Source: Anaeromyxobacteraceae bacterium | GTDB taxonomy: Bacteria; Myxococcota; Myxococcia; Myxococcales; Anaeromyxobacteraceae | NCBI GenBank assembly: GCA_047602405.1 | Contig: JASGHJ010000002.1 | Location: 640,001-704,000, forward strand | Length of the DNA stretch: 64,000 bases | Reading direction: 5' to 3' | Shown: one piece after another, positions 17,461-26,318 of the stretch | How positions within the stretch are numbered: the first letter of the stretch is position 1 | Layout of the letters: every line of letters begins with the position of its first letter | Made by a program: the position numbers and the translations under genes | Notes under the pieces: generated by a model | The model's input: the letters and a program-made list of their open reading frames with translations, nothing else | Databases searched by the model: none | What the model was told of the DNA's origin: nothing

Positions 17461-17619
17461 GGGGACTCCGGGCGGGGGTTCTCGGAGGGAGGCGGGCCGG
17501 GTCCGGGCGTGACCGCGGGACCCCAGAGGTCCGCCGTTCAGAGGTCCGCCGTTCGGCCGCCCCCGTCCGTCCCTCTCCCCCCGCCCGTCCCTCTCCACCC
17601 CGGGTCCGTCCCTCTCCCT

Positions 17620-17669
17620 CCGTCCGTCCCGAGCGTAGCCCCCGCGCAGCGGGGGCGGAGACGAGGGAC
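17620..17669. repeat. Palindromic REP-like repeat, copy B
   Basis: ccgtccgtcccgagcgtagcccccgcgcagcgggggcggagacgagggac. Confidence 0.75.
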
Positions 17670-17725
17670 AGGGGCCCGGGGGCTCAGATTCCTCCCTGAG
17701 CCCCAGCCGGATCCTGCGATTTCAC

Positions 17726-17747
17726 TGTCAGACCGGGGTGGCAGGAT
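17726..17747 (+). promoter_or_regulatory. Putative PafBC/RecA-NDp-like promoter
   Basis: TGTCAG-N10-CAGGAT, 7 nt before ATG 17755. Confidence 0.5.
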
Positions 17748-17754
17748 CGCGGGC

Positions 17755-19578
17755 ATGGACGCGTGGGCGGCCAGCGAGATTCGTCGGCGGAGTGGCACCG
17801 GAGCTCGCCCCGGCGGCTGCCTCGAACGACGCCGTCTCCGCGCAGGCCGCGAGCAGCATCGCCCGCCGCGACCCGCTCGGCGACCGCTGGGACCTCCGCG
17901 CGCCGCGGTGGGATCTCCCGACCTTCACGCTGTTCGAGCTGCGCGAGCTCTGGCTGCGCGGCGACGGCGGCCTCGAGAAGTACGAACGCGCTCTCGCCCA
18001 GGGCGCTCGCATGCTGCGGGCGCTGCAGGTCAGCCGCGCCGCGGTGCTGGCCAAGTTCACGGAGGGTGACCGGCTCGCCCGGCTGGGCTTCTCGAGCCTC
18101 GGGGACTTCACCGAGAACCTCCTCGGCACCCGCCGGCGCGCCGCGCAGGTGGAGGTCCAGCTCTCGAAGGCGCTACGGGAGCGGCCGCTCCTCAGGGCCG
18201 CGGTGCACGCCGGCACGGTGAGCCCGTCGGCGGCGCTCGCGGTCCTGCCGGTCACGCCCGGAGACGACGAGGCGCGCTGGGTCGAGCGCGCGGCGGAGCT
18301 GCCGGTCCGCAGGCTCAAGCAGGAGGTGAAGCGGGCGCTGAAGGAGCGGAAGGCGCTGCCCGGGCCCGACGCCGCGGAGGAGAAGAGGGAAGAGGACGAG
18401 GCACCCTGGGTGCACCTCGACGTGCCGATCTCGGACCGGGCCAGCGAGCGGCTCCACAAGGCCCTCGCCCTCGCCGGCGAGCTCGTCGAGAGCCCGCACC
18501 GGTTCGTCCAGCTCGAGGCGCTCGGGCAGGAGTTCCTCTCCGAGCACCCGGGGGACGAGTGGGACGTGAAGGGCGCCGAGCTCGCCCTCGATCGAACGCT
18601 GCATCCCCTCGACGTCCCGACGAAGCGGAACGCCGCGGAGGCGAAGCTCGAGTCGGAGACCTCCTCCTGGGAGTTCCTCGACCCGGTCGTCCCGGTCCCG
18701 GCCGTCGAGCTCGACCCGCTCGACGCCGCGACGGACGACGACCTGTACGGCACGGCGCTCGGCCTCTCCCTGGAGATCAAGAGCTGGGAAGACCTCATCG
18801 GCTTCTGCTCGGCGGTCGTGAAGGGCGCCCGGCTCCACAAGGAGGCCGGCTTCGTCGACTTCCGTCACTACGCGACCGAGCGGCTCGGCGTCCCGGCCCG
18901 CACCATCGAGACCCGCGCCGCGCTCGAGAAGCACCTCTGGGAGAAGCCCGAGCTCAAGGTCGCCAAGGAGATGGGCCTCAGCTACTCGAAGCTGCTCCTG
19001 AGGTCCCGCAGGACCAGATCCTGGAATTCGCGAAGCGGGCCGAGACCCTGACGGTGGTCGAGCTCAAGGAGGCCGTCCAGGCGCGGACGGACGCGCACAT
19101 GTCTGCGTCGAAGCGATTCCGGGTGTGGGTCCCCCGCCGGGTCGCCTTGCTGCTCCACCAGGCGTTCCTGGCCTCCTTGGCGCTTCCGGTTCCGCCGGAG
19201 GAGGCGCAGACACCGCAATCCTGCACCCTGGACGGCGCCTTTCTCGGGAAGCTCGCGGACCACTTCATCGCGGTCTGGGGCGGCGACGTGATGGAGCCGA
19301 AGACCGTGTCCCAGAAGCAGCGCGCGAAGTACCCGCGCTGCTGCTTCCCGGGCTGCAGCCGCCGCAGCGACCACGGCCACCACATCGAGTTCCGCAGCCA
19401 CGGCGGCTCGGAGGACGCCTGGAACCGCATGCCGCTCTGCGCCTTCCACCACCACGTCGTCGTCCACGGCGGCCACGCCACCATCACCGGCATCTTCCCC
19501 GACGCCGTCGAGTTCCGCGTGAACGGCGTCGTCTGGAAGGACGGGCAGTTCGGCCGAACGCGCGCGGAGCGGGTGTGA
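17755..19578 (+). CDS. HNH endonuclease with long helical N-terminus (DUF222-like); apparent frameshifts near 17780 and 19000
   Basis: C-terminal CCFPGC..HGHHIEFRSHGG.....NRMPLCAFHH..VH HNH/zinc motif; two helical repeats (GFSSLGDF..LG / GFVDFRHY..ERLG). Confidence 0.8.
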
Positions 19579-19588
19579 GCCTCGCCTC

Positions 19589-20776
19589 CTACCCTCCGTG
19601 CACCTTCACCCTCGCCGCGACGGCCTGCGCCTGCGCGACGAGCGCCTTCGGGTCCGTCCCGACCGGTGCGTTCACGAGCGCGACGCCCATCCGGCGGTAG
19701 GGCCGCGTCGTCGGCTTCCCGAAGATGCGGACGTCCACGCCCGTCCCCGCGGCGCCCGGCACGGGCGCGAGCGCCTCCTCGAGCCCGCTCACCTCGGGCA
19801 CGCCCTCCTTCGACGCGAGGATGACGGCGCTCGCCCCCGCCCGCAGCAGCTCCGGCTCCGGGATCGGCAGGCCCAGCACGGCGCGCGCGTGCAGCTCGAA
19901 CTCCGAGAGCGGCAGCGTCCCGGCGAGCGTCACCATCCCGGTGTCGTGCGGGCGGGGCGAGAGCTCGGAGAAGGTGACGCCGTCCTTCTCGGAGAGGAAG
20001 AACTCGACGCCCCAGAGCCCGGCGCCGCCGAGCGCGGCGGTGACCGCGCCCGCCATCCGCCGCGCCTCCGCGAGGTGCGCCGCGCTCATCGCGTGCGGCT
20101 GCCAGGACTCCTGGTAGTCGCCGCGCTCCTGCCGGTGGCCGATGGGCGGGCAGAAGAGCGTGGGGCGGCCGTGCTGCTGCGTCACCGTGAGGAGCGTGAT
20201 CTCCGAATCGAAGTGGACGAAGGCCTCGACGATGACCTCGCGCAGGTCCCCGCGCGTGCCGCTCATCGCGTAGCTCCAGGCCTTCTCGACGCCGGCCTCG
20301 TCCCGCACGACGGACTGGCCCTTCCCGGACGAGCTCATGAGCGGCTTCACCACGCAGGGGAGGCCGACCTCCTTCACCGCGGCGCGGAACGCCTCGAGCG
20401 TCGAGGCGTAGGCGTAGGGCGCGGTCTTGAGGCCGAGCTCCTTCGCCGCGAGGTCGCGGATGGCCTTGCGGTTCATCGTGAAGTTCGCGGCGCGCGCGCT
20501 CGGCACGACCTGGATGCCCTGCCGCTCGTGGGCGTGGAGCCGCTCGGTCCGGATGGCCTCGATCTCGGGCACGATGAGGTCCGGCCGGTGCTTCGCGACG
20601 ACGGCGTCGAGCGCGTCCCCGTCGAGCATGTTCACGACCTCGCGCCCGTGCGCGACCTGCATCGCCGGGGCGTCGTCGTAGGAGTCCACCGCGATGACGC
20701 GCTGCCCGAGCCGCTGGCAGGCGATGACGAACTCCTTGCCGAGCTCGCCGGAGCCGAGGAGCAGGATGGTCTTCAT
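19589..20776 (-). CDS. purT: Formate-dependent phosphoribosylglycinamide formyltransferase
   Basis: [58 protein letters not shown]. Confidence 0.96.
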
Positions 20777-20838
20777 GGGGGGCGTACGCTACCGGAGGGC
20801 GCCGGCCCCGGCCAGCCGGAACCGAGGGGGCGACCCCG

Positions 20839-23512
20839 TCACTGCCAGCGATCGAGGCGTCGGGCCCGGGGCGTGAAAGTCGCCGAGAACGCCCGCGCCC
20901 GCGCCCGGAGGAGGAGCTGGCGGCCTTCGGCCGTGCGGGTCGGGTGCAGCCGCCCAGTCCCGATCCGGCGTCGGAACGCCTCGAGGAGCAGCCTCGCCGT
21001 CTCCTCGCGGGCGCCGAGCACGGCCGGGACCGCGTGGAAGTCGCTCCGGGCGCCGACGAGCGGGAGGTCGCCCTCGCGCTCCAGGAGGAAGCGCGGGTTC
21101 TCGATCTGGCCAAGGAGCTCGTCGAGGCAGTCGGCGTACACCGAGGAGTCGCGGTAGGACGCCCCGGCGAGGCTGACCGCGAACTCGCCGGGGGCGACCT
21201 CGTTCACCCGGAGCGCGCCATCCCCGACCTCGTGGAGGACGCCCGCCTCGACGAGCGCGTCCCGGAGCGCCAGGGCCAGCTCCCGGACGCTCCCGTCGAC
21301 CGGGAGGTGCCGGGCGAGACCGACCGCCGCCCGCGCGAGGGCGGGGAGCGAGAAGGCGAGCCCGATGGCGCAGGCACCGCCCAGAAAGAGGAGCGTGGTC
21401 CTCAGGTCCGCCCCCTGGGGCGCGCTCCGCATCACGAGCGACCAGCCCGCGCCGAAGGCGGTGGCCGCGGTGGCGAGGAGGTAGGTGAGCGTGTTCCGGA
21501 AGAAGCGGCGACGGAAGCGGGGCGGGTCGAGAGGCTCCACCGCGGGCAGCACGCGCCCGAAGTGTCCCTCGCCGACGGCCCGCCGCCAGCGAGCGCGGAC
21601 GTCATCGAGCCTCCGGAGCCGAAGCGCCGAGGTCTCGTCGACCGCGGCGATCCAGCCCGCCCCGGGCGGAGGCAGCCGCAGCCTCGCGAGGCCGCTCTCG
21701 AGCACGGGCTCCTCCGCGTCGAGCCCGACGAAGGAGTCGAAGCGCCGCGAGAGGTCGTCGAGGTCGTGCCAGCCGGCGCGGGCGCGGGGCGCGATTGCCA
21801 CGAGGTGCCAGATGCTCGCGACCTTGTCGGGTGAGGCCGCGTGGTGACGGATGGCCCGGCCGCGGAGTTGGTTGGTGAGCACGAACGACCCCGCGTAGGT
21901 GGCGAGCACCAGCGAGTTCACCGCGGGCGCGTCCCAGCCCTCGCCGAGCAGCGCGCGGGTCCCGACGAGCACCCGCAGGGCGCCGTCCTCGAGCGCGAGT
22001 GTGAGCGGGTGCACCGCCGCGCTCCCCGGGGCGGAGAGCCGTACGAAGCCCTCCGGCAGGTCTCCACCGGTGACCCACTCCGACGCGGCGGAGCCGAGGA
22101 GCGGCAGGAGGGCGCGGTGGACCACCGTGAGACGGCCCGTCACGAGGGCCAGGTACGGGTGCTCCTCGGGCGACACGGCCGCTGCGAGCGCGCGGAAGAT
22201 CGGCCACGCGCCGAGCCGTGGCGCCGCAGCGGGTTCCTCCTCGCGGATGTGGTCGGCGAGGAAGACCTGCCGCAGCGCGGTGCCGCGTGCCGCGGCCTCG
22301 AGCGTGTGGATCCGCACGCACGCGTCGAGCTTCGAGGGCGATGCGGAGAGCTCGGCCTCGGCGGTGGCCGGGCGTTCCATGCGAAGGCTCCGGCCGTGGA
22401 GGAGCCGTTCCGCGCGCAGGCGTCGCGCGAGCGCGTCGCGGCGGGCGAGCCGCGCCGGATTGGGGGCCCAAGCCTCGCCGTGCAGGTGATGGTCGAGGAG
22501 GGCGGTCCAGGTGCGCAGATCGAGGGCGGGGACCTCGGCGGGCGCGACGCCGAGCAGCGCCAGGAGTGGGCCGTCGCCGGCGAGGACGCCGCGGGCCCGG
22601 CAGTAAGCAAGGAGGGCCACCGCCGCCTCGACGTCCTCGAGCACCTCCGCGGGGTCCGGGGCGACGAGCCAGGGGTGAACGCGCACCGCCTGGAGCAGCC
22701 CCTCGTCGCGGAGCAGCTCGGCGAAGAGGGCCCTCACACGCGCCTCGTGGCGCTCGAGACGTGCGGCCGCCTCCGCGGTGGCCTCGACCGCCCACACGAG
22801 GTCGAGGTGCGGGCAGAGCGCGCCGGAGCGCACGAGCTCGGGCGCGGAGATCTCCTCGTCGATCGGGCCGCACAGCGCCTCGTAGCGGCGCCACTCCCGT
22901 GCGGTCACGTCGTAAGGCGGCGTCGCGGTGAGCGACACCACGGTCACGTTCTCTCCGAGCGCCTCGGCGAGGGACGTGAGCGCCTTCCACCAGGCTTGCC
23001 GGAGGTGGTGCGCCTCGTCGAGCACGAGCGTCCCGACCCCGGCCGCGCGGAGCTGGGCGGCGAGCGCCTCGAGCTCCGCTCCGGTCGGGAGCTCGGGGTC
23101 ATCCCCTCCCGCGCCGGCGTCGGCTGCCTCTTCGTCTCCCGGCTCGCCGGCGGCCGCCAGGCCCGCGCCGCGGTGAAGCGCCTGGTAGGTCACCGAGGTG
23201 AGGACGCCCGGTGCGCGCAGGTCCGTCGTCGCCCACGCGGGCGGCGGGGCCCCCTCGGGCAGGAAGTCACCGAGCCGTCGGAGCCACTGGTCCCGGATGG
23301 CCGTCGTGGGCGCCAAGACGAGCGCGGGCTTCCCGATGCGGCGGAGGATTCTCGAGCCCGAGGATTGTCTTGCCGGAGCCCGGCGCGGCGACGACGTGCA
23401 CCCGCCCATCGGCGAGGTGCGCGTCGAGGGCCTCGAGAACGCGCGCCTGGTAGGGCCGCCACGCGTGCCGGAACCGCAACGTGTCGGAGATTGAGGGAGC
23501 GGACGCGAGCAT
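20839..23512 (-). CDS. Superfamily II DEAH helicase with C-terminal TM pair; apparent frameshift at about 23349
   Basis: WRPYQ, APGSGKT, LAPT, DEAHH, LTATPP, LLGEGWD, QLRGRAIR. Confidence 0.85.
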
Positions 23513-23557
23513 CCTTGGGCCATCATCTCCGGGAAGGGCCCGGCCGGCCAGCGCCCA

Positions 23558-23579
23558 TGTCCGACCCGCCGTCTAGGAT
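23558..23579 (+). promoter_or_regulatory. Putative PafBC/RecA-NDp-like promoter
   Basis: TGTCCG-N10-TAGGAT, 7 nt before GTG 23587. Confidence 0.55.
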
Positions 23580-23586
23580 GCACCCC

Positions 23587-25076
23587 GTGGAAACCCTCGT
23601 CCTCGCTGGCCTCCTCGTCGTCGCCGCCCTCGTGGCCTACGTCGCCTTCGCGGTCTCCCGCAGGCCCGCGGGGAGCTCTCCGCCGAGGCCTCGGCCGAGC
23701 TCGCGGCGGCGCTGACGGCGCAGGTGACCGCCCAGGTGACCGCCGCCCTCGCCCCGCGGCTCGACGCCCTCGACCGCTCCGTCGAGCGGCTCGAGCGCGA
23801 GATGCGCGACGAGCTCGCCCGGGGGCGCGGCGAGGCGACCCGGACGGCCCAGGCGCAGCGCGAGGAGCTCCGGGAGGCGCTCGCCGAGTCGTCGCGCGCC
23901 ACCGCCGAGCGGCTCGACCGCGGCCGCGACGAGGCGGGCCAGGCCTCGAAGGCGCTCGCCGACACGGTCTCGAAGCGGCTCACCGAGACGCAGGCGCTCC
24001 TCAAGCACGAGCTCGAGGCCGCCGGCGCGCGCATCCAGCAGCTCTCGCAGTCGAACGAGAACCGGCTCGACAAGCTCCGGGTCGCGGTCGACGAGCGCCT
24101 GCAGAAGCTCCAGGCCGACAACGCCGAGAAGCTCGAGCAGATGCGCGCGACGGTCGACGAGAAGCTCCAGGGCACGCTCGAGAAGCGGCTCGGCGAGTCC
24201 TTCAAGCTCGTCTCCGAGCGGCTCGAGGCGGTGCAGCGCGGCCTCGGCGAGATGCAGACGCTCGCCACCGGCGTCGGCGACCTCAAGAAGGTGCTCTCGA
24301 ACGTGAAGGTCCGCGGCACGCTCGGCGAGGTCCAGCTCGGCGCGCTCCTCGACCAGATCCTCGCGCCCAGCCAGTACGCCGTGAACGTCGCGACGCGTGG
24401 CGAGGGCGGCGAGCGCGTCGAGTTCGCGATCCGCATGCCCGGCCAGGAGGACGGCTCGGGCGAGGTCTACCTGCCCATCGACGCGAAGTTCCCCATCGAG
24501 GACTACCAGCGGCTCGTCGACGCCTCCGAGCGCGGCGACGCCGCGGCGGTCGAGGTGGCCTCGAAGGCGCTCGAGGTCCGCGTGAAGGGCTGCGCGAAGG
24601 ACATCCACGACAAGTACCTCGGCCCGCCGCGCACCACCGAGTTCGGCATCCTCTACCTGCCGGTGGAGGGGCTCTTCGCCGAGGTCGTGCGCCGGCCCGG
24701 GCTCGTGGAGGCGCTGCAGCGGGATTTCAAGGTCCTCGTGGCCGGGCCGACCACGCTCACGGCGATCCTCTCGTCGCTGGAGATGGGCTTCCGCACGCTC
24801 GCCATCACGAAGCGCTCGAGCGAGGTCTGGAAGGTGCTCGGCGCGGTCAAGACCGAGTGGGGCAAGTTCGGGGACGTGCTGCAGAAGGTGGAGAAGAAGC
24901 TCACCGAGGCTTCGAACACCGTCGCCGAGGTCCACAAGCGCCAGCGCGTCATCGGGCGGAAGCTCCAGTCCGTCGAGGAGCTCCCCGCGGCGGGCCCCGA
25001 GCAGCCGCTCCTCTTCGCGCCGGTGGACGCGGGGGACCCGGACAAGGACGGCGACGAGTCGCGGCGGCCGGCGTAG
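23587..25076 (+). CDS. rmuC: DNA recombination protein RmuC; apparent frameshift near 23672 after the TM anchor
   Basis: N-terminal TM, coiled coil, NVKVRGTLGEVQL, LPIDAKFP, FGILYLPVEGLFAE, GPTTL. Confidence 0.92.
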
Positions 25077-25105: not shown

Positions 25106-25144
25106 GGCCTGGCGTCCGGCCGTGGGCTGGGCTAACCCATGCGC

Positions 25145-26117
25145 ATGCCCAGGGCCATCAGGATCCACGAGACCGGCGGGCCGGAGGTGCTCCGGCTCGA
25201 GGACGTCCCCGTCGGCGCGCCGGGCGCGGGCGAGGTCCGCCTGCGCCACACCGCCATCGCGGTGAACTTCGTCGACACCTACCACCGCACCGGGCTCTAC
25301 CCGATGAAGCTCCCGCTCATCATGGGCGTCGAGGCGGCGGGCGTGGTCGAGGCGGTCGGGCCGGGCGTGCAGGGGCTCTCGCCGGGCGACCGGGTGGTCT
25401 ACCTCACCGCCTCGGGCGCCTACGCCGAGGTGCGGCTCGCCCCCGCCGACCGCTGCATCCGGCTCCCGGACGGCGTCTCCGACCTCACGGCCGCCGCCAC
25501 CTTCATGAAGGGGCTCACGGTCGACGCGCTCGTGCGCCGCACCCACCCGGTGAAGGCGGGCGAGACGGTCCTCGTGCACGCCGCGGCCGGCGGCGTCGGG
25601 CTCCTCATGGTGCCGTGGCTGAAGTCGCTCGGCGCGACCGTCATCGGCACCGCGGGCTCCGACGAGAAGGCGGCCACCGCCCGCGCGGCCGGGTGCGACC
25701 ACGTGATCGTGTACTCCCGGGAGCCCTTCGCACCGAAGGTGCGGGAGCTCACCGGCGGGGAGGGCGTCCCGGTCGTGTACGACGGGGTGGGGAAGGCGAC
25801 GTTCGAGGGTTCCCTCGACAGCCTCGCGCCCTTCGGCCTCCTCGTCGCCTACGGCAACGCCTCCGGGCCCGTGCCGCCCTTCGATCTCCGCACGCTCGCT
25901 GCGAAGGGGTCGCTGTTCGTCACGCGCCCGACGGTCTTCGGCTACGTCGCGAAGCGGCCCGATCTCGAGCGCGGCGCGAAGGAGCTTCTTCGACCGGCTC
26001 CTCGACGGACGCGTGAAGGTGCCGGCGCCGCGCACGTGGCCGCTCGACGGGGTGGCGGACGCACACCGCGCGCTCGAGGCGCGCGCCACGACCGGATCGG
26101 TCGTGCTCGTTCCCTGA
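25145..26117 (+). CDS. qor: NADPH:quinone oxidoreductase (zeta-crystallin type); apparent frameshift at about 25986
   Basis: HETGGPEVL, HAAAGGVG, VVYDGVGK, YGNASG, KGSLFVTRP; tail AHRALEARATTGSVVLVP in shifted frame. Confidence 0.92.
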
Positions 26118-26318
26118 GCAGCGCGCCCGCCCGGCCGGCATCACCAGCACCCTCCGTCAGGCTGCGCCCCGCTGGCGCGCTGCGCGCGGGCGCACGCGAC
26201 GGGATCGCAGAGAGGCCGTGTCGCAGAGAGACGGTGTGGCAGCGGCGCCCGTGTCGCAACGGGGCGCGTCACCTCGCCGCGCGGGCGTTGACGGTTCGTG
26301 ATGGCAGGATTGCCGGTC

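Follow-up and report, generated by a model that had tools for sequence, protein, structure and literature searches.

The closest described system is that of the actinobacterial RecA-NDp promoters, which carry the motif tGTCgg(N10)tA(N3)T and work through sigma adaptation by PafBC (PMC8635444, PMC11804915, PMC6789036; PDB: 7P5X, 9FND, 6SJ9); in the literature that we found, sigma adaptation has been demonstrated only in mycobacteria. Mechanism and motif are known from Actinobacteria, and a pafBC pair of Myxococcus xanthus was named in 2021. Here, we describe two sites of this kind in a 64-kb stretch of DNA (the window, G000:C2:640001-704000) from the genome of an Anaeromyxobacteraceae bacterium (G000; 6.16 Mb, 74% GC). 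Judged from motif and protein sequences, the two sites belong to a genome-wide YGTCRG-N10-TA promoter class (N10, a spacer of 10 nt), whose reader is probably a PafB/PafC heterodimer with its genes in another part of G000. The sites are made up of the following elements:

17726..17731, + strand: PafBC-type -26 element of site 1, TGTCAG; score of 19.0 for the whole of site 1 with the position weight matrix (PWM) described below
17742..17747, + strand: -10 element of site 1, CAGGAT, 10 nt 3' of the -26 element and 7 nt 5' of an ATG; predicted leaderless start
23558..23563, + strand: PafBC-type -26 element of site 2, TGTCCG; TGTCCG-N10-TA is also found 5' of rmuC in genomes G010 and G015
23574..23579, + strand: -10 element of site 2, TAGGAT, 7 nt 5' of a GTG; predicted leaderless start

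Site 1 in full is TGTCAG-accggggtgg-CAGGAT (17726-17747), followed after 7 nt by the ATG at 17755-17757, and site 2 is TGTCCG-acccgccgtc-TAGGAT (23558-23579), followed after 7 nt by the GTG at 23587-23589; the coordinates, N10 spacing, and 7-nt distance to the start codons given for both in the first-pass annotation are correct. The two sites are the sole matches to TGTCNG-N10-YANNNT within the window. Shuffled windows contain a mean of 0.72 matches and at least two in 12 of 100 cases, so the pair of sites alone is not beyond chance and the case rests on the genome. The motif had been noticed only in front of these two genes, which holds within the window but not beyond it, where it defines a promoter class.

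The class is spacing-locked and enriched at repair genes. In non-coding DNA of G000, TGTCAG-Nx-TA occurs 24 times at N10, as compared with 0–5 times at each other spacing from N5 to N16, and an ATG or GTG start codon lies 5–11 nt 3' of 44 of the 80 N10 sites versus 4–6 of the 25–34 sites at N8, N11, and N12. When a PWM trained on 41 sites of other genomes is applied to the called genes of G000, it has N10 matches 5' of 9 of the 41 repair genes, as compared with 47 of the remaining 5127 (odds ratio 30, p = 3e-10), and of 0 of 41 repair genes at N8, N9, N11, or N12; with the five training gene families removed, 5/36 repair genes are matched. The repair-gene enrichment that the first-pass annotation had proposed to look for is therefore present, and only at N10. 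It should be noted that the repair genes were chosen by short protein motifs and our own gene caller, with seven then checked by Pfam/NCBIfam, and that the set lacks Fpg, RecQ, MutY, RecO, and DinB, which the short motifs did not detect. A first enrichment test (14/44) had taken in rmuC, dnaB, xth, and ruvC, chosen post hoc, plus a second ssb; the PWM test dropped all of these and added recG and imuA, the latter already known to be a match.

N10 sites are found 5' of ssb (2 copies), polA, uvrA, uvrB, uvrD, radA, ruvC, recN, recJ, and addB; of dnaB, dnaE, imuA, xth, rmuC, RNase H, and six TnpB-like genes; and of genes for a PolB-like exonuclease, a PD-(D/E)XK nuclease, and an MBL-fold exonuclease. 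recA has a variant, TGTCGT-N10-TAGAGC, slightly below the PWM threshold, and there is no PWM match 5' of lexA, uvrC, mfd, mutS, lhr, and others in G000. Viewed from the -10 side, GTC.G is present at N10 in just 13 out of 548 leaderless boxes, nine of these 13 belonging to nucleic-acid enzymes and none having a -35 match; the class is thus not the housekeeping promoter. A bipartite tGTCgg-N10-tA(N3)T without a -35 element, in front of repair genes that include recA, corresponds in sequence to the PafBC type of promoter. As a separate observation, TGTCCG-N10-TATGTT lies upstream of carD/cdnL at G000:C2:1252664.

The genome also encodes a candidate reader. There are six WYL genes in G000, namely two tandem pafB/pafC pairs, of the pafB/pafC-like helix-turn-helix (HTH)-WYL-WCX kind that the first-pass annotation had proposed to search for, and two single WYL genes. 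WYL and WCX are present in all four pair proteins, and the HTH_PafC profile scores 97.6 bits in PafC1 and 31.4 bits in PafC2 (cut-off 32). The best PDB matches of pair 1 (G000:C1:2006840-2008896) are PafBC structures (6SJ9, E = 3e-24 and 5e-30). Compared with the Mycobacterium smegmatis residues named in the available text of PMC8635444 and PMC11804915, PafB1 retains K5, R8, E42, A43, R46, R50, K52, and Y76; its recognition helix AAIRKFERDK aligns to EAFSRMFERDK with the GTC-reading R46 and R50 kept, as are R181, R204, R208, and R214 among the single-stranded DNA (ssDNA)-binding WYL residues, with Y196L and R211H changed. D62 of PafC1 is kept, as are R416 and R442 of sigma-70. Best matches and residues together point to kinship of pair 1 with actinobacterial PafBC. 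A complex prediction of the PafC HTH with sigma-4 gave no answer (score 0.03) and is not used as evidence. At E = 1e-25, PafB has a match in 38 of the 41 near relatives, and at E = 1e-20 in 31 of 71 genomes of the phylum. A search of seven genomes for Pup ligase (PF03136) gave no match in any of them, with a positive Corynebacterium control. A TGTCTGACA palindrome 5' of pafB1 was considered as an autoregulatory site and rejected, being present only in G000 and G010. Elsewhere (G000:C1:541292-542055), a TGACAG-gaac-TGTCAC palindrome lies between a single HTH-WYL gene and the 127-aa gene 3' of it, in what looks like a local WYL regulator-target pair.

Motif and pafBC co-occur across Myxococcota. 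In 30 chosen genomes, the PafB search and the PafC profile give the same division into 17 genomes with pafBC and 13 in which it was not found, and YGTCnG-N10-TA is found 5' of radA, recN, uvrA, or recJ at 32 of 63 loci in the former (one locus without upstream DNA being scored as a miss) versus 1 of 46 in the latter, or, by genome, in 14/17 versus 1/13. Other spacings give four matches with pafBC and none without. The lone exception is G049, whose divergent tandem WYL pair, with the helix RTFERDK, was missed by the PafC profile. In front of the main recA, TGTCAG-N10-TA is present in five of five other genomes, and in front of the second recA in none of five (one alignment being truncated). Motif, spacing, targets, regulator genes, residue conservation, and co-occurrence are all direct readings of the DNA.

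For Myxococcus xanthus, published damage responses can be set beside the motif. The pafBC locus of strain AM003, located with a probe from PMC9705874, encodes close homologs of pair 1 (MXAN_1359/1360) with the same ERDK helix. The likeness of PafB in M. xanthus and in genomes of the same order suggests that G000 is to be placed near Myxococcus. Sheng 2021 named this pair and, in one sentence of the text covered, assigned a PafBC-binding sequence to 24 of 51 genes (PMC9705874), and Jung 2025 set it aside because the pair is LexA-regulated (PMC12288472). In the covered text of these two reports there is no motif definition, PafBC test, or link to ddiA; Fig. S3 of Sheng 2021, which was unreadable, may list genes (PMC9705874, PMC12288472). 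Our literature searches, which did not extend to subscription journals, gave no report in which PafBC is tested in myxobacteria or connected with ddiA. Among induced proteins taken from Tables 1 and 3 of Jung 2025 (the RecQ, UvrC, DnaE2, RecX, and RecD promoters being left out), the N10 motif lies 5' of recN, recJ (GGTCAG), recA2, sbcD1, dinB, priA (with a CA-type -10), and ddiA, and it is carried by four of five tested LexA-independent mitomycin-induced units (sbcD1, priA, dinB, and ddiA). The M. xanthus assembly gave no match for RecD2. In this species and in G036, TGTCAG also lies 11 nt from the -10 box 5' of the imuB operon (loci L438 and L437, respectively).

The ddiA gene was identified by its 119-aa XRE protein, a published primer, and a divergent neighboring cluster with a 319-aa ParA-like ATPase. 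We take this cluster to be pomY/Z/X, the names coming in part from the paper. The ddiA -10 box, TAATCT, ends 100 nt 5' of the ATG, which has been placed at +94 of the transcription start (PMC12288472). Relative to the published start, the -10 box then spans -13..-8 and TGTCAG spans -29..-24, one base off the mycobacterial -28..-23, in a comparison in which the strain differs and the published coordinates are ambiguous by one base. The motif is present in six of six ddiA orthologs and in 0/25 paralogs, and there is no SOS half-site at ddiA. According to the available text of Jung 2025, the induction of ddiA 'remains to be determined', with a slight rise in the lexA mutant; the induction of ddiA, sbcCD1, dinB, and priA is LexA-independent; and DdiA is not autoregulated (PMC12288472). 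The slight rise is expected if more PafBC is made in that mutant. G000 has no DdiA ortholog at E = 1e-25.

The response had been proposed to be LexA-independent, which fits the two window sites and the pafBC1 promoter of this genus but not all of the class. A GTTCAG/CTGAAC LexA half-site lies near 15 of 74 non-coding N10 sites in G000 (background 127/5000), mainly those of TnpB-like genes, some HNH genes, imuA, and uvrD, whereas 59 of the 74, including both window sites, have none. In this genus, pafBC1 has a promoter of the TTGAC type with no conserved SOS box, and GTTCAG is found in the 110 nt 5' of pafB1 in one among the 23 genus loci listed (one of them contig-cut and uninformative). In M. 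xanthus, LexA is reported to bind the pafBC box weakly, with PafB/C up 3.4 log2 in the lexA mutant (PMC12288472). Given half-sites at 15/74 sites and the reported repression of M. xanthus pafBC by LexA, LexA independence is partial and lineage-dependent. In two small genes without a Pfam/NCBIfam match (G000:C1:165595-166146 and C2:3448757-3449275), the PafBC-type -10 overlaps a GTTCAG half-site.

Pair 2 (G000:C1:232518-234514) has a changed PafB2 helix, KKFTRDK, with K at position 46. Non-coding TGTCCG-Nx-TA in G000 peaks at N9 (19 sites versus 1–9 at other spacings), and the median count of TGTCCG-N9-TANNNT is 6 where pair 2 is present (17 genomes), as compared with 0.5 where it is not (8 genomes), the sites often being clustered near pair 2. 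TGTCCG-N9-TA sites such as those at C1:77359-166183 and C2:388242-392028 precede island genes (an ARPP-1 domain gene, an AddB-like nuclease, and unknowns). In G015, rmuC lies directly upstream of pair 2 (L341, G015:C1:4541986-4544568), which makes both pair 1 and pair 2 candidate readers of site 2.

The genes behind the two sites, and the repeat that contains site 1, are as follows:

17560..19581, + strand: copy of a dispersed ~2-kb element with a hairpin-rich 5' part containing inverted repeats, a PafBC-type promoter, and an HNH gene; 11 copies by blastn, 64–100% identity
17755..19578, + strand: HNH-domain gene of ~600 aa, interrupted by two frame changes that stem from either assembly error or decay; intact paralogs have 600–658 aa
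23587..25076, + strand: rmuC (DNA recombination protein; PF02646, E = 2.1e-74), with one base missing near the 5' end when compared with the intact ortholog in G010

Site 1 had been taken for an ordinary repair-gene promoter; instead, it is borne by the dispersed HNH element. In blastn, similarity among the copies sets in at the promoter region (in the closest copies, ~190 nt 5' of the ATG) and ends at the stop codon, so the HNH unit is most likely a mobile element carrying its own promoter. By tblastn, there are 16–17 related HNH loci in G000, nearly all with the motif, and HNH subfamilies less than 35% identical each retain it, with different spacers and -10 boxes. The assignment as an HNH nuclease holds only in part: the C-terminal HNH domain match is below cut-off in the window copy (E = 0.029) and just reaches it in a paralog (21.6 vs 21.4 bits). 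The identification of rmuC, on the other hand, is upheld by its PF02646 match. GTG is the true start of the intact ortholog in G010, and rmuC of G000 lacks one base shortly after it; the window HNH copy has an extra base relative to an intact paralog and a second break near 19051. Both genes are thus out of frame just past the start codons named in the first-pass annotation. rmuC was detected in one of five genomes tested, and a search of 40 relatives with its promoter DNA gave G010 as the only true match, the others being GC-rich noise.

Single-base frame breaks occur at 17755-19578, 23587-23724, and 25139-26200 of the window and in recG, ligD, and hrpB elsewhere in G000, and are likely to be long-read assembly errors. 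A DEAD/ResIII-type helicase gene (20839-23583, - strand) is divergent from rmuC, and the intergenic region with site 2 is common to both. Parts of the hairpin-rich GC stretch at the 5' end of the HNH element (17560-17700) are also found alone at C1:1579773 and C2:894425. Six 645-aa genes with a weakly TnpB-like C-terminus (G000:C1:600290, 645872, and 1538103; C2:800010, 2144411, and 2703461) each have a CTGAAC LexA half-site directly 5' of a PafBC-type promoter with a leaderless GTG.

By analogy with mycobacteria, ssDNA would bind the WYL domains after damage, the PafB helix (the R46/R50 equivalents) would read the GTC triplet, and the PafC HTH would replace the -35 contact of sigma-70 region 4, after which the housekeeping RNA polymerase could fire -35-less, mostly leaderless promoters. 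LexA half-sites overlie a subset of these promoters, and the dispersed HNH and TnpB-like elements carry the motif with them. In M. xanthus, the likely wiring is that LexA represses pafBC, which in turn would activate recA2, recN, recJ, sbcCD1, dinB, priA, and ddiA, with the published effect of DdiA on dnaE2, direct or indirect, as the last step. It is PafBC binding, activation by ssDNA, sigma adaptation, and the ddiA cascade that we infer here. On balance we also lean toward a wider picture in which sigma adaptation by PafBC acts as the master switch of the damage response in Myxococcales and provides the missing inducer of ddiA (a three-tier LexA–PafBC–DdiA–DnaE2 mutagenesis cascade in M. xanthus, with LexA as the repressor at its head), a duplicated PafBC with a changed helix runs the one-base-shorter class in Anaeromyxobacteraceae, and the HNH and TnpB-like elements are wired to the host sensor. 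The WYL-driven damage regulon proposed earlier is in accordance with the promoter class, the pafBC pairs, and their co-occurrence, and is not wholly new in myxobacteria (Sheng 2021).

Several observations weigh against reading of the class by PafBC. PafB1 has the changes S40T, R56L, Y196L, and R211H, and the sigma-70 contact S446 is Ala (S446A). Non-repair genes (carD/cdnL, carB, a phosphoribosyltransferase, and unknown genes) are also matched in G000, and three of the 17 pafBC genomes (G041, G042, and G078) lack the motif at the four tested genes; moreover, the genomes are kin rather than independent, so p values overstate the case. Four induced M. xanthus genes, uvrA, lhr, ruvA, and recA1, have no motif; imuAB has it at N11; and ssb, nth, and ligA have it and are absent from the changed proteins visible in Table 1 and, by word search, in Table S1. 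A search of sequencing runs gave no close RNA run for G000 (best share 0.24). The relaxed 18-mer lacks specificity in M. xanthus, with 111 matches versus 204 for a reversed control, and most of the ~62 of these 111 that were inspected lie 5' of genes without an evident repair role. Finally, recN and recA2 are reported not to be further UV-induced in a lexA mutant (Sheng 2021, PMC9705874).

Could the motif be damage-linked but have a reader other than PafBC, whether a single WYL protein, an alternative sigma, or an XRE protein of the DdiA kind, with pafBC only traveling along? The two further single WYL genes in G000, the TGACAG/TGTCAC palindrome beside one of them, and the changed Y196 and R211 of PafB1 would agree with this, but we consider it unlikely: the motif is non-palindromic and directional with the same geometry as the PafBC consensus; G027, G050, and G071 have other WYL genes and no counted motif; G086 lacks both pafBC and motif while members of its family have both; and DdiA, which does not autoregulate, has no ortholog in G000 at the threshold used. 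A reading in which no damage-specific activator is involved, the motif being either a variant of the housekeeping sigma-70 promoter in GC-rich myxobacteria or noise carried by repeats, is very unlikely. The ~17 HNH-family and six TnpB-like loci do inflate the raw count, the motif precedes some non-repair genes, and its relaxed form is common in M. xanthus; yet it sits on just 13/548 leaderless -10 boxes, is enriched at single-copy repair genes at N10 only, and is nearly absent where pafBC was not found, even though sigma-70 region 4 is 91–98% identical among these genomes.

A closer relative of the PafBC reading, overlapping it for part of the regulon, has PafBC read the promoters in a basal or amplifying role, with LexA as the dominant switch and induction through LexA release at overlapping boxes and at pafBC. 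The weak LexA binding at the M. xanthus pafBC box with the 3.4 log2 rise of PafB/C, the behavior of recN and recA2 under UV, and the half-sites at 15/74 G000 sites are all consistent with it. We give it only a small chance, since 59/74 sites, both window sites, and ddiA have no half-site, ddiA, sbcCD1, dinB, and priA are induced independently of LexA, and the pafBC1 promoter is TTGAC-type with GTTCAG in 1 among the 23 genus loci listed. If PafBC is indeed the reader, this would be a Gram-negative version working without a Pup system and with a changed sigma-4 contact, which would show that the mechanism is portable. It would give a concrete answer to what induces ddiA of M. xanthus independently of LexA, a point left open in the published work, could account for the disputed LexA dependence of recN, and suggests that HNH and TnpB-like mobile elements tie the timing of their own expression to damage in the host.

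The window's HNH family presumably resembles the mycobacterial DUF222/13E12-type HNH repeats, which are likewise dispersed, multicopy, and equipped with damage-linked promoters. A weak DUF222 match (E = 0.0035) is present in one HNH gene of G000, and there is no DUF222 match in the window's HNH family; HNH genes of M. tuberculosis are listed as RecA-dependent in the part of PMC8151990 covered. Like PafBC of Mycobacterium smegmatis and Arthrobacter aurescens, the system has tandem pafB-pafC genes, a winged HTH-WYL-WCX architecture, and the same motif at N10; the GTC-reading arginines, most ssDNA-binding arginines, and PafC D62 are those of mycobacterial PafBC; and, as in mycobacteria, recA has a PafBC-type site plus LexA boxes and the regulon spans recombination and excision repair. 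Unlike mycobacterial PafBC, it is found in a Gram-negative host with no Pup ligase detected in seven of seven genomes searched, has Ala at S446 and PafB Y196L and R211H, leans to TGTCAG with a relaxed last T of the -10 (18/41), includes a second pair that has a changed helix and tracks a TGTCCG-N9-TA class, and, in M. xanthus, is under LexA. DriD (Caulobacter), DdaA-type proteins (Acinetobacter/Moraxellaceae), SiwR, and CapW/BrxR are, in the sources as covered, also WYL ssDNA sensors for damage or defense genes, DriD being a homodimer, unlike the PafB/PafC pair. In our searches, CapW/BrxR matched only the WYL region at ~E = 1e-3, whereas PafBC matched at 1e-17 to 1e-30; the matches did not include DriD. 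The motif is non-palindromic and tracks a tandem pair, and by sequence the system is thus not of the single-gene, palindromic-operator type of WYL activator represented by DriD, DdaA, and SiwR, its likeness being to the PafBC heterodimer.

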